Of a DNA stretch of 64,000 nucleotides, positions 59,098 through 62,889 are shown in pieces. The DNA lies in the NCBI RefSeq assembly GCF_044324785.1, contig NZ_CP172127.1. One strand, given 5' to 3'. The DNA is from Escherichia coli (GTDB taxonomy: Bacteria > Pseudomonadota > Gammaproteobacteria > Enterobacterales > Enterobacteriaceae). Made by a program: the position numbers and the translations under genes. The number at the start of each line of letters is the position of its first letter. The stretch's first letter is position 1. The notes beneath the pieces were generated by a model. It searched no databases and was not told where the DNA came from. It saw only the letters and a program-made list of their open reading frames with translations.

Positions 59098-62000
59098 TTA
59101 TTTTTTGAACTCAACCAGTCTCTTATATTGGGGGGTATTAATTAACTTTTTCTTAGCTTTGATAATATCGACCAAACAGATTTCTATTTCCTCAGCACAT
59201 CCTCGTTGATTATCCATAATCAAACTGATAAGTTCTAATGTTTGAGATGGAAATTTATTTGGTATCTCTGACTCGTATAATTTTTTCAGTGTATAATGAG
59301 GCCATTCAAATGGAATGATCCACGGTTTTACAGTATCGAATATATCCTGAAACCTATCCTGGCCCGCAATACAGAGTTGCACTAAATTCTCTGAAATTCC
59401 CGGCGTCCTTAACTTTTGAGATTTTGGCCATATCTTCTTTAAAAATATTTTTATACAGTTATCCCAATATTCAGAATATTGTTCTCCTGAGCTTTCAATT
59501 GCATCTACAAGAGTATTAGTTGAGATTATCAGGCTCTCCGATGGAAGATTTCTAAACGCTTTTTGATAATCGTCAAGAACATAGTCTTTTGTCGGTTCAA
59601 GTGCAGCATATGTCAAAAAGATAGTATATTGTTTTTTAGCATCAGTATCTCCAAGATCTTGATAGTGTTCCGCTGTTTTCAAAAAAGCTTGTTTAAATGC
59701 AGCAAGCAATGGGGCATAAAGACGAGGGGTCCATAAGAAACCAGGCCATACTGATTTTGCTTCAAGAAAATTACTATCCCAAATAAATAATGGTAGAAGG
59801 TACTTTTTCGCCCAATTTGTGTCAACTCTGAATAATGGGATCAAATTTGAGGCTAAAATAACTCTGGAATTTCTGAAAGAGATATTATGGGTGTCACATA
59901 GCTTTGTGAAAAAGACTTTCAATTTATCTGGTATGCCCTCATTATCATGCGGCTTACCATTGAGCCATATATTTATTAATGCTTGTGTAATATTTCCTAC
60001 AGGATGATTTATAGCTTGTATTATTGATTTATAATCATCTGTTTCATCGTAACTAAAATCTATAATACGCTGACAATATGTAGTATAAACATCATTCAAC
60101 TCACTCATTCCTGTGGAAATTTTCGCTAACCATTGAGCGAGGCTGTGCTGAATCTCAGGGAATAAATCATCTGGAATATTTAATAATAATGGTCCTATTT
60201 CTTGCCAGGACTCCTGAATCAGGTCTTTATCACACCAAGTCTGTAAACCTGAACGCCAATATTTGCATGGCCAAATATCCTCCATGGCTAATTCGCGAAG
60301 CACACAAACAATCATCGGTAAGTTTTGTTTACATATTTCGATCCAGTTATCACGTTCAAACGGAGATGATTTCTTATTATCAGCCCTTTCTCTTAACCAG
60401 TTGATGATGCCGTCCTTTGTATCTGGGACCATTTCTGTAATTATTTCCTCTTCAAAATCGGGATCTCCTGTTCCACTCATCCAATGCGAAAATTCGTCTC
60501 TTTCATTTGTGGTCAATTTCCAGTAAGGATGTTTTTCTGATAAAAAATCCAATTTGTTCTGTGCATTTATATTGAGCTTTACACCTGAAAATTGTAGTTT
60601 TGATAAGAACAACCATATATTTCTTTCGACTATATTTTCCCATTCATTCTCATTAATAGAAATATTGAATAATTCCTGTGAATATCCTAGTGTTATTGCA
60701 TTTTCAAGCTTTCGTTGTTCAATGGCAGTTAGTGTTTTACCTTGCAAAACGAAGAGTCGGCAAACTTCACGATGAGTATCAATAGCCCACAACCAATAGC
60801 CATTTTGTTCCAGTAATAGATTCACCCATTCTTTAGCATCAATGCATTCATTATAACTGGCAGAAAAAATGACCAAACGCTTAAATACTGGATATGGAAA
60901 TGACCACCAATTTAAAGCAAGTTTTTTAGCTTTGTTTTTATCTATTTCATAGATTTGCAACCAAGAATCTCTCAAAAGTTCAATTAGTTTCACCCAATTA
61001 CGATAACCTCTATTTTGCCAATGAGGCGTAATTGATGGTAAGTCCCAAAAAGATCGATCACTTGCACTTATGGAATTATCATTCAGTTCAAATTGTAAAT
61101 CCATCGCATCAAGAAGTAATTGTTGAAGATCATCAAACAAGGATGGCAAGATTTCCTTCCATATTGATTTATTTTCTAAATCTTGTAGCCAATAAAGATC
61201 TGTTGATATATTTAATTCATGCCTTACAGATTGTGAAATATTTTTTTCATTTTGGGATGATTTATTAAAATTTAGTTGAAAAGGTTGTTGCAGGATAAGG
61301 GTAGGCGCTAAAATTTTTCTTAGCGCTAACCGGCAAGCCATATTGAAATTGCCATGTTGAAATTGATCTATCCAATAATTATTTTCATATACAGATGAAT
61401 TGGTCCCTATTCTTCCTGCTAAGAATAAACGCCAAATAGCTCGTAAATTCTGAGATGGGATCGCATGTAGTCCTTCTTGCTTGATACGTTTGAGAGACTG
61501 CTCCTCATTGTTTCTTTCTAATCGTTCAATCTCACTCAACCTATTACTTATTAAATTTGATAACTGGGGATGCAGTTTTCCCCCTTGCTTTGCTAACCAA
61601 ATGATTAAGTCAACGTTACCAATATGTTTTATCAGCCATAAACAAATATATACCATAACAGAATCCCACTGACAAAATTCGCCACCAAAAGAAGCTAAAC
61701 TCATTCGTGGTGAAAGTTTGTATGAGGAAGGGCGATTAATCAGGCTAAATTGAAGATTAGGATCAAATTCAGAATGGGCCGGGGTATTAAAGCGAGGTAG
61801 ATCTGGATATCTATAAGATTTTTTTTCAAATTCCCATAACCAACTTAGTGTGGGAGCAGGATTCATTTCTGCCAGGCGTTTTGCGGGCTTACCGGAATTA
61901 TCACTTAATGCCCATAAAACCCTTCCAACAAAATTATCCTCTTGAGTACTTGTCGAAGGATGGGCAATTACATATTGGGCTACAATTCTTTCTTTACCCA

Positions 62001-62889
62001 TACTTCCATTGTTATATATTTCTCCCCATATTTTTAATGTCTCATGAAGTAATTCATGCTTCTTAGTCGTTTTGTACAAAACAGGAATGACCCCTTTGGC
62101 TTCCCAAATTTCAGCCGTTGTAGATTCTTCATTTGGTTTATAATCTGCAAAGGCATATGCTTGAGGGGTATATTCGCCTAACATCCTATCTGCTGCTAAA
62201 GCATCCATCATATAGCGTAATACAGGATCATTAATACTATATCCTATAAAACAAACAACATAGTTTCTAAATAGTTCACTTACAAATCTGGCAGCCCATC
62301 TTTCTGTTAAATAAGCACATCCGAAATCACCACTGGTAACTACCAGACGGTTCAACTCTGTATGATTTTTTTTATCATGAGGTAATATTCCGTGCAAGTA
62401 AACCACTCCATTCCATCTACTATTTTTTGGAACAGGTAACATAGGTGCCAAATATGATGTTAGTTTCTTCTCCATATTTTTCGCAGCTATGTCAAAAAGA
62501 TGATCAAAATTTGTGGTGACAAGTCGTATGCGCCCACCTTGATCTTGAGATAATTGTAAGAGAGCATTATGAGTTGTTAGGGCATTTTTTCTTCGAACCT
62601 TTGGTTTCAATATCTGAGACAATGCATAGCGTACAGTTTGTTTATTTCCTACTATTCTTCTCTCAAGAAGTTCTAATGTTGTATCATATTGGTAAGCTTT
62701 ATAGGCGGCTTCTTCGAGAGCATTCCGTGTTTCACCGATTCTTTGATATATGTTGTCAACCAAATCTCCAAACCCCGGTAATCCAGCAGGATATGAAATT
62801 CCCGCTCCGCAGAAGAATACAACTTTCCCCTCTTCGTGTGCTTGTAGTAATGAATCGGGAATATCTGGACCATTAGTAATAAACTGCAT
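59098..62889 (-). CDS. SIR2-domain giant protein (defence-associated sirtuin-like; predicted NAD+-degrading antiphage effector)
   Basis: 1263 aa; N-terminal SIR2-like signature (VVFFCGAGIS, TTNFDHLFD, YLHG, VCFIGYSINDP) then ~950 aa of helical region with no obvious motifs; strongly AT-rich. Confidence 0.8.
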   Translation of the reverse strand: MQFITNGPDIPDSLLQAHEEGKVVFFCGAGISYPAGLPGFGDLVDNIYQRIGETRNALEEAAYKAYQYDTTLELLERRIVGNKQTVRYALSQILKPKVRRKNALTTHNALLQLSQDQGGRIRLVTTNFDHLFDIAAKNMEKKLTSYLAPMLPVPKNSRWNGVVYLHGILPHDKKNHTELNRLVVTSGDFGCAYLTERWAARFVSELFRNYVVCFIGYSINDPVLRYMMDALAADRMLGEYTPQAYAFADYKPNEESTTAEIWEAKGVIPVLYKTTKKHELLHETLKIWGEIYNNGSMGKERIVAQYVIAHPSTSTQEDNFVGRVLWALSDNSGKPAKRLAEMNPAPTLSWLWEFEKKSYRYPDLPRFNTPAHSEFDPNLQFSLINRPSSYKLSPRMSLASFGGEFCQWDSVMVYICLWLIKHIGNVDLIIWLAKQGGKLHPQLSNLISNRLSEIERLERNNEEQSLKRIKQEGLHAIPSQNLRAIWRLFLAGRIGTNSSVYENNYWIDQFQHGNFNMACRLALRKILAPTLILQQPFQLNFNKSSQNEKNISQSVRHELNISTDLYWLQDLENKSIWKEILPSLFDDLQQLLLDAMDLQFELNDNSISASDRSFWDLPSITPHWQNRGYRNWVKLIELLRDSWLQIYEIDKNKAKKLALNWWSFPYPVFKRLVIFSASYNECIDAKEWVNLLLEQNGYWLWAIDTHREVCRLFVLQGKTLTAIEQRKLENAITLGYSQELFNISINENEWENIVERNIWLFLSKLQFSGVKLNINAQNKLDFLSEKHPYWKLTTNERDEFSHWMSGTGDPDFEEEIITEMVPDTKDGIINWLRERADNKKSSPFERDNWIEICKQNLPMIVCVLRELAMEDIWPCKYWRSGLQTWCDKDLIQESWQEIGPLLLNIPDDLFPEIQHSLAQWLAKISTGMSELNDVYTTYCQRIIDFSYDETDDYKSIIQAINHPVGNITQALINIWLNGKPHDNEGIPDKLKVFFTKLCDTHNISFRNSRVILASNLIPLFRVDTNWAKKYLLPLFIWDSNFLEAKSVWPGFLWTPRLYAPLLAAFKQAFLKTAEHYQDLGDTDAKKQYTIFLTYAALEPTKDYVLDDYQKAFRNLPSESLIISTNTLVDAIESSGEQYSEYWDNCIKIFLKKIWPKSQKLRTPGISENLVQLCIAGQDRFQDIFDTVKPWIIPFEWPHYTLKKLYESEIPNKFPSQTLELISLIMDNQRGCAEEIEICLVDIIKAKKKLINTPQYKRLVEFKK

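Follow-up and report, generated by a model that had tools for sequence, protein, structure and literature searches.

The anti-phage sirtuin Dsr1 is sufficient by itself for defense (PMC9391042; bioRxiv 10.1101/2021.12.14.472415), and NAD+ is depleted during infection in the presence of DSR1 (bioRxiv 10.1101/2021.12.14.472415). Phage T4 lacking nrdC.5 is blocked by the dsr1 gene of E. coli ECOR17 (PMC9391042). For EcDsr1 (WP_029488749.1), a 2026 preprint (PMC12803255 / 10.64898/2026.01.04.697583) reports that, when 73 genes of phage ZL19 were screened by co-expression, cell death was activated by the major capsid protein alone, that toxicity requires the NADase domain, and that the sensor is common to Avs7. 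According to the same preprint, the sensors of Dsr1 and of Avs7 STAND NTPases (e.g. Salmonella SeAvs7) are homologous and both are triggered by capsid proteins, whereas Avs7 combines its sensor with a STAND NTPase module and a Cap4 nuclease effector. Bacillus subtilis DSR2 follows the same logic, joining an N-terminal SIR2 NADase to a large C-terminal alpha-solenoid to which a phage structural protein binds; its trigger is the phage tail tube protein, and NAD+ depletion follows (PMC10973363, PMC11850899). A SIR2-type NADase fold is further found in ThsA (Thoeris), LmuA (Lamassu), KomC, SIR2-HerA, and Avs5.

The window analyzed here is a stretch of 64,000 nucleotides from E. coli (contig NZ_CP172127.1), in which an earlier note had described a 1263-aa ORF, present as described (Table 1), as a DSR-type single-gene SIR2 NADase defense with a large C-terminal sensor. 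This functional reading was right: the protein scores 1670.4 bits on NF041818, the curated NCBIfam equivalog for the anti-phage defense-associated sirtuin Dsr1, for which the cutoff is 1400, with aa 1-1262 aligning to model positions 1-1262 of 1263, and it matches PADLOC Dsr1 (PDLC02183) across its full length with 1606.7 bits. The implied novelty of the gene, on the other hand, does not stand, because the alignment to the Dsr1 equivalog takes in the entire sequence with its C-terminal ~950 aa, and this C-terminal region is collinear over its full length with a characterized DSR (ECOR17-type Dsr1), the outcome against which the note had itself staked the claim. The gene is dsr1, an already named single-gene anti-phage defense studied experimentally in other Dsr1 proteins. 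An identical protein, already named Dsr1, is found at NCBI on 185 contigs, and PGAP applies the label dsr1 to a 97.8%-identical allele in 14 complete E. coli genomes; the value of the identification is mostly that of a correct annotation, as these standard pipelines (PGAP and PADLOC) already call the gene. Main-clade Dsr1 members reach 2057-2146 bits on NF041818, ~400 bits more than the 1263-aa protein, which by profile score is a divergent yet accepted member of the family. The lower score gives no more than a faint hint that the seeds of the model, and hence the exemplar, belong to the other E. coli type.

With the tested Dsr1 (ECOR17 Dsr1/EcDsr1) the protein shares its length class (1263 versus 1275 aa), and with the Dsr1 family it shares the SIR2_2 domain, the TTN.D Asn and the His, a collinear helical sensor of ~970 aa, and the occurrence as a single gene on a mobile element. 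Identity to the ECOR17 type is ~48% over 1279 columns, a distance at which phage range cannot be read across to this AT-rich sublineage, and the GC content is 0.519 in the former versus 0.355 here. Equating the protein with ECOR17 Dsr1 itself was considered and rejected, the cloning primer encoding ...RRSV*, as in the 1275-aa type, and neither primer occurring in the window. WP_029488749.1 is not the accession of any of seven RefSeq dsr1 genes that belong to the 1275-aa type.

Table 1. Features of the dsr1 locus, in window coordinates
Feature	Position	Strand	Basis or remarks
Intergenic hairpin between convergent dsr1 and 228-aa ORF/hsd	59062..59094	.	15 pairs; tail TCATTATTTT on + strand only
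dsr1 CDS	59098..62889	-	ORF list and translation; ATG start, 1263 aa plus stop
C-terminal sensor region, aa 291-1263	59101..62019	-	Collinear with Dsr1 proteins; helical
Confidently modeled alpha-solenoid, aa ~630-1263	59101-61002	-	AF2 model
SIR2 (NADase effector) domain, aa 1-290	62020..62889	-	Pfam SIR2_2 aa 123-268, E 1.8e-20
Predicted catalytic His166	codon 62392-62394	-	In YLHG
Predicted catalytic Asn127	codon 62509-62511	-	In TTNFD
Divergent intergenic region upstream of dsr1, 149 bp	62890..63038	-	Read from sequence

The SIR2 motifs listed in the note are all present, namely GAGIS (aa 28-32), TTNFD (aa 125-129), YLHG (aa 164-167), FIGYS (aa 214-218), and NDP (aa 220-222), and the SIR2-family profile search that it proposed for the N terminus returned the SIR2_2 match given in Table 1. 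The closest solved SIR2 structure is that of the NADase KomC (8zsf), which aligns to the SIR2 domain; in this alignment His166 pairs with KomC H146, which is mutated in entry 9xvc. Both Asn127 and His166 are intact in this copy; these two residues, the Asn of TTN.D and the His, are invariant across 44 distant family members, and the SIR2 domain is the best-conserved part of the protein, with an identity to the main clade of 0.76-0.87 over aa 151-250. Likeness to ThsA, LmuA, KomC, SIR2-HerA, and Avs5 is limited to aa ~13-260, where only weak N-terminal matches were obtained (LmuA, E 2.6e-10; ThsA, E 8.9e-9; KomC, E 1e-5), and the sensors or partner genes of these systems are absent from this protein.

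The region of ~950 aa had been reported to lack any assignable motif, and it does lack Pfam family matches, but it is collinear with all Dsr1 proteins. Its alignments to the ECOR17-type protein and to 33 homologues are gap-poor, with numerous Trp, Pro, and Gly residues invariant. The proposed Pfam family DUF4020 was not recovered, aa 300-1263 giving zero Pfam matches at E<=0.1 in this protein and in six homologues. The sensor is modeled as a HEAT/ARM-like alpha-solenoid, and its structural neighbors in AFDB are Dsr1-like proteins; some of these neighbors, at 28-37% identity, carry the label DUF4020 in UniProt, and one is annotated as "ATP-binding protein (fragment)". No solved sensor structure was found by sequence, and fold searches of the PDB returned generic HEAT/ARM solenoids only. 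A sensor-only profile run against 1.84 billion representatives recovered 4085 relatives, and among the 150 matches listed all had the Dsr1 architecture. The suggested likeness to DSR2 (SIR2 + MID + CTD) found no counterpart in sequence or fold when the protein was compared with B. subtilis DSR2. No Avs7 structure was matched by the sensor in the PDB searches and, in contrast to Avs7, the protein described here has no Pfam NTPase domain and uses SIR2 as its effector.

We consider it very probable that the gene encodes a Dsr1 in which a SIR2 NADase is switched on by a phage protein bound to the C-terminal sensor. The N-terminal NAD+ glycohydrolase would be inactive at rest until the alpha-solenoid of ~970 aa is bound by a protein that the infecting phage produces, and this binding would switch on the SIR2 domain, the trigger in the tested E. 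coli Dsr1 being the major capsid protein. Depletion of NAD+ would then block phage replication, with transient growth arrest or cell death. From other Dsr1 proteins, we infer by analogy that this copy would deplete NAD+, would be triggered by a capsid protein, and may be subject to counter-defense by T4 nrdC.5.

Sequence comparison places this dsr1 copy in an AT-rich Dsr1 sublineage that is rare: among 5426 complete E. coli genomes it occurs in 14, compared with 76 for the other (1275-aa) E. coli type. The gene is horizontally acquired and lies in a mobile defense island beside an integrase at tRNA-Leu, with defense genes as neighbors. In the E. coli and Salmonella copies inspected, all of which represent one island module at >=95% identity, the sublineage constantly carries an SBD-HNH nuclease, a 5'-nucleotidase matched by the PADLOC candidate PDC-S08, dsr1, a 228-aa orphan ORF, and a type I R-M system. 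The other E. coli type occurs alone and adjoins a prophage integrase, whereas a 55%-identical relative adjoins conjugation genes and lacks the 5'-nucleotidase; the neighborhoods of the three lineages are completely different, which fits a stand-alone gene, although within the present sublineage the neighbors are constant. Plasmid mobility, considered because one copy lies on a replicon annotated as a plasmid, was rejected, the record having the chromosomal pepA-lptFG-tRNA-Leu context. The gene is under purifying selection, with a dN/dS of 0.196 versus the E. coli allele and 0.154 versus the Salmonella allele.

The note's statement that the gene is far more AT-rich than the core was borne out: dsr1 has a GC content of 0.355 and a GC3 of 0.275, compared with ~0.50 in adjacent core-like sequence, within a low-GC block of 57-63 kb that also takes in hsdS and the 228-aa ORF. 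On the + strand, the 5'-nucleotidase gene (63039-64004) points away from dsr1, and the hsd genes and the 228-aa ORF run toward it, the latter ending at 59057. Of its description as a stand-alone unit with its own RBS and a shared hairpin terminator, the orientation and the hairpin are upheld, but the RBS is minimal (AGG at -10..-8) and the dsr1 side lacks a U-tract. Folding of the hairpin gives a predicted dG of -21.8 kcal/mol (z -4.4) for the + strand and -19.2 kcal/mol (z -5.3) for the - strand, and none of 200 shuffles folded equally well; the T-tract of a canonical intrinsic terminator is found only on the + strand side, leaving dsr1 with a hairpin without U-tract. Upstream of dsr1, a perfect TATAAT (62929-62924, - strand) lacks an acceptable -35, a promoter scan of the divergent intergenic region with the two-hexamer rule gave no passing sigma-70 promoter, and any promoter can be assigned here by inference only. 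An AT-rich gene with no convincing promoter could be poorly expressed in laboratory conditions. Rfam gave no match over 57-64 kb.

These features of composition and expression bear on whether dsr1 is a silent or decaying island passenger with no current function, as might be argued from its very low GC, the absence of a recognizable -35, and the truncated copies that occur within the same 90% cluster. Such a state is quite improbable, however, for a 1263-codon frame that is intact and collinear end to end with the family model, keeps its catalytic residues, and shows a dN/dS of 0.15-0.20 across alleles. It is extremely improbable that the protein is no defense NADase but a housekeeping or regulatory sirtuin with NAD-dependent protein deacylase or ADP-ribosyltransferase activity; SIR2-fold enzymes do include deacylases, and Pfam SIR2 (PF02146) gives a weak match (E 1.7, aa 28-135), but the significant match is to SIR2_2, a family that occurs in defense proteins, the nearest solved SIR2 structure is a NADase, and the gene is rare, horizontally acquired, and placed in a defense island. 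Members of its family have moreover been shown experimentally to be NAD+-depleting defense proteins. The constant neighborhood raises the question of a two-gene system made of dsr1 and the divergent 5'-nucleotidase, in which, for example, one protein would process the nucleotide products of the other. The two genes have the 149-bp intergenic region in common, the pair is kept in every inspected E. coli and Salmonella copy of the sublineage, and the nucleotidase matches PDC-S08 at 444 bits. With all of these copies drawn from a single module, the linkage may nevertheless be purely historical, and the solitary setting of the other E. coli type, the nucleotidase-free setting of the 55% relative, and the published sufficiency of Dsr1 alone make such a partnership very improbable.

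A further alternative accepts the protein as Dsr1 by descent but holds that the AT-rich sublineage responds to another phage protein, or to another set of capsid proteins, and so has a distinct defense spectrum, which we regard as possible although on balance doubtful. Identity to the main clade is only 47-48%, whereas that clade is tight (62-92% pairwise, median 70%), and it is lowest in three sensor stretches (aa 451-550, 851-950, and 1201-1263) that show good conservation inside the main clade; with divergence greatest in these parts of the sensor, the trigger could differ. In agreement with this, 33 of the 36 differences from the allele of strain JNE141411 fall in the sensor. Much of the divergence nevertheless looks compositional (a FYMINK residue share of 0.31 compared with 0.15-0.17 in the main clade, alongside the low GC3), the sensor has remained collinear with its invariant Trp, Pro, and Gly positions, and capsid sensing is reported to be common to both Avs7 and Dsr1, a pair separated by a much larger distance (PMC12803255, preprint).

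The reading of the gene as a phage-activated Dsr1 NADase leaves room for the tentative suggestion, which we hold at low confidence, that the sublineage may recognize another phage protein or capsid class, with its own phage range and phage-encoded inhibitors, and may also cooperate with the PDC-S08 5'-nucleotidase. From a comparative point of view, E. coli harbors two Dsr1 types, ~48% identical and carried by different mobile elements, and comparing them side by side against one set of capsid proteins and the T4 nrdC.5 inhibitor would bear on how sensor divergence relates to the specificity of the trigger in an immune receptor made of one protein.

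Sequence comparison indicates that the gene under study very probably encodes an already known protein, the defense-associated sirtuin 1 (Dsr1). The window protein scores 1670.4 bits against NCBIfam NF041818 ("anti-phage defense-associated sirtuin Dsr1"), a curated equivalog with a cutoff of 1400 bits, its residues 1-1262 aligning to positions 1-1262 of the 1263 in the model, and the PADLOC Dsr1 model PDLC02183 is also matched over its full length (1606.7 bits); the LmuA, ThsA, and generic SIR2 defence models match weakly and over the N-terminal ~250 residues only. Exact-sequence lookup found the identical 1263-aa protein in NCBI on 185 contigs, already under the Dsr1 name, and RefSeq gives the name dsr1 to a 97.8%-identical gene in 14/5426 complete E. 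coli genomes. Because of these full-length matches and this naming, the gene is no longer the unassigned candidate that the earlier note had proposed: its C-terminal region can be aligned over its full length with a characterised DSR protein. The DSR-type reading itself, an SIR2 NADase with a large C-terminal sensor, is borne out by the NF041818 and SIR2_2 matches, the NADase activity being presumed from other family members. Our analysis shows family membership and also the catalytic residues. Every SIR2 motif named in that note is present in the 1263-aa ORF; the profile search that it suggested matched aa 123-268 to Pfam SIR2_2 (E 1.8e-20), and no Pfam model matched the other ~950 residues (queries aa 1-1200 and aa 300-1263).

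Features of dsr1, its product and the surrounding window
Feature	Position	Strand	Details
dsr1	59098-62889	-	ATG start, 1263 codons (ORF list and translation)
GAGIS motif	aa 28-32		window Dsr1
TTNFD motif	aa 125-129		window Dsr1
YLHG motif	aa 164-167		window Dsr1
FIGYS motif, then NDP	aa 214-218, aa 220-222		window Dsr1
TATAAT, perfect	62929-62924	-	upstream of dsr1
Shine-Dalgarno, AGG	-10..-8 relative to dsr1 start	-	minimal
Hairpin between convergent stops	59062-59094	both	dG -21.8 (+) and -19.2 (-) kcal/mol
5'-nucleotidase gene	63039-64000	+	continues ~4 nt beyond window; PDC-S08 full length, 444 bits
ORF228	58371-59057	+	228 aa, 3' end of hsd genes, GC ~0.34
Type I R-M set, complete	52060-58349	+	hsdR 1138 aa, hsdM 544 aa, hsdS 392 aa
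Second type I R-M set, unrelated to first	35240-41200	+	hsdM 518 aa, hsdS 389 aa, hsdR 1038 aa (1601 bits)
AbiEii toxin	41620-42567	-	423 bits
ORF in low-GC block	31688-33742	-	684 aa; weak type II restriction-enzyme match, E 2.7e-13

The claim that dsr1 is AT-rich also holds (GC 0.355 and GC3 0.275 vs ~0.50 GC in the flanks); together with hsdS and ORF228, an orphan ORF between hsdS and dsr1, it makes up a low-GC block at 57-63 kb. Further low-GC blocks (0.37-0.41) lie at 8000-10000, 23000-26000, 31000-34000, and 46000-48000. Transcription of dsr1 is divergent with respect to a + strand gene that begins at 63039; the hsdR-hsdM-hsdS-ORF228 series (+ strand), which ends at 59057, converges on dsr1. 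The hairpin between the convergent stops is strong (0/200 shuffles fold equally well), but the sharing of this terminator needs a small qualification, because the T-tract sits on the + side and the terminator scan accordingly calls it for that strand only. Similarly, dsr1 has its own ribosome-binding site, but a minimal one, and neither the promoter scan nor reading of the sequence found an acceptable -35 upstream.

The setting of dsr1 is a typical defence island. All copies inspected (E. coli chromosomes, one "plasmid" replicon, and Salmonella) share one module in the order tRNA-Leu, integrase, SBD-HNH, 5'-nucleotidase, dsr1, ORF228, hsdS, hsdM, and hsdR, of which the tRNA-Leu is annotated for E. 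coli alone and the SBD-HNH gene is of ScoMcrA type ("phosphorothioated DNA-binding restriction endonuclease"). The "plasmid" replicon, NZ_AP023207.1 (pMTY18781-2, 93.8-kb), bears the island with chromosomal pepA-lptF-lptG-yjgR-tRNA-Leu at 1-21792 and is a chromosomal segment that was wrongly assigned or else one that was excised or captured. The PADLOC run proposed earlier matched Dsr1, PDC-S08 (a PADLOC defence candidate), and type I R-M, confirming the R-M proteins of the window. Lengths of hsdS, inside the low-GC block, are 392 aa in the window, 388 aa in the related strain JNE141411, and 390 aa in Salmonella, consistent with the specificity subunit being swapped between alleles. ORF228 matched nothing in Pfam, NCBIfam, or PADLOC; its high divergence from the JNE141411 allele (dS 0.73 vs 0.06 for dsr1 and 0.16 for hsdM), combined with a dN/dS of 0.16 (dN 0.117), suggests a genuine gene that is swapped rapidly. 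With the second type I R-M set, AbiEii, and, in the aligned JNE141411 segment past the AbiEii gene, CbtA/YeeU toxin-antitoxin, RadC, and DUF932 genes, the window is therefore a multi-system defence and mobile-element region.

Within this island, a housekeeping sirtuin role is unlikely. That dsr1 is a dead gene is also unlikely, because its dN/dS is 0.196 against the JNE141411 allele and 0.154 against that of Salmonella enterica and its frame is collinear with NF041818 end to end; dsr1 is under purifying selection. Of its 36 amino-acid differences from the JNE141411 allele, 33 fall in the sensor and the other 3 in SIR2. Coupling of Dsr1 to the adjacent 5'-nucleotidase would fit the fact that, in all E. 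coli and Salmonella copies inspected, that gene (so annotated in related genomes; no NCBIfam match) stands next to dsr1 of this sublineage, but it is absent beside other Dsr1 lineages, which makes coupling unlikely; since the neighbours of those lineages are unrelated to the window module, the published view of Dsr1 acting alone is still the best reading.

The 90% cluster of window Dsr1 is isolated. Its closest relative (55% identical) is a single metagenomic protein beside TraC-type conjugation genes, and all other top matches (46-48%) belong to one tight main clade (pairwise identity 62-92%, median 70%) from Pseudomonas, Vibrio, Bradyrhizobium, Chlorobium, and Meiothermus; such uniformity across distant phyla points to recent, frequent horizontal transfer of one successful variant. 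Against NF041818, the main clade reaches 2057-2146 bits and window Dsr1 1670. Much of the divergence appears compositional, FYMINK residues accounting for 0.31 of window Dsr1 vs 0.15-0.17 of the main-clade proteins. Identity to the main clade peaks at aa 151-250, in the SIR2 core (0.76-0.87), and bottoms at aa 451-550, 851-950, and 1201-1263 (0.24-0.33), stretches conserved inside the main clade. A second, commoner E. coli type (1275 aa, gene GC 0.519, 76/5426 complete genomes) directly follows a prophage integrase. The dsr1 gene of E. coli ECOR17, when driven by its own promoter, stops a T4 derivative without nrdC.5, and nrdC.5 returns infection (Srikant et al., PMC9391042). The ECOR17 protein is not that of the window: because its cloning primer encodes ...RRSV*, the C-terminus of the 1275-aa type, and neither primer is present in the window, these experiments concern a type 48% identical to window Dsr1, which by analogy may share the nrdC.5 sensitivity. 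That the AT-rich sublineage differs from tested Dsr1 in trigger and phage range is possible, if rather doubtful.

The sensor was modelled with AlphaFold2 (aa 281-1263, 34 sequences; mean pLDDT 76), its last ~630 residues being entirely helical at pLDDT about 90 and residues 281-630 of lower confidence. A PDB search with the sensor-only profile returned no chain at E<=1. The AFDB50 neighbours comprise Dsr1-like SIR2 proteins of many phyla, several proteins with the DUF4020 label, and one "ATP-binding protein" fragment, and the same profile found 4085 relatives (1302 at E<=1e-30) among 1.84 billion cluster representatives; in each of the 150 listed, the sensor begins near residue 300, and 44 of the weakest of these keep the SIR2 N-terminus with TTN.D and His invariant. 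The model and these searches thus confirm the predicted fold class, an alpha-solenoid, and show that the family is broad. The sensor, which the earlier note could not place, had already been placed in the literature as Avs7-type and capsid-triggered, because a 2026 Gao laboratory preprint (PMC12803255; also an April 2026 version) reports homology between the Dsr1 C-terminal region and the sensor found in Avs7, a STAND protein, with AlphaFold3 models showing a conserved, bilobed, and sharply bent sensor, and, in a 73-gene co-expression screen, identifies the major capsid protein of ZL19, a Drexlerviridae phage, as the unique activator of cell death by EcDsr1 (WP_029488749.1), whose toxicity is abolished when the NADase domain is disrupted. 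In B. subtilis, DSR1 (credited there to Gao et al. 2020) gives protection against phi29, NAD+ being depleted transiently and the culture not collapsing (Garb et al. preprint, 10.1101/2021.12.14.472415). In all likelihood, window Dsr1 follows the Dsr1 mechanism, an SIR2 NADase gated by a sensor of phage protein: the NADase would be kept inactive at rest and switched on when a phage protein produced during infection, by analogy most likely a major capsid protein, binds to the alpha-solenoid sensor, whereupon NAD+ would be depleted and phage replication would fail.
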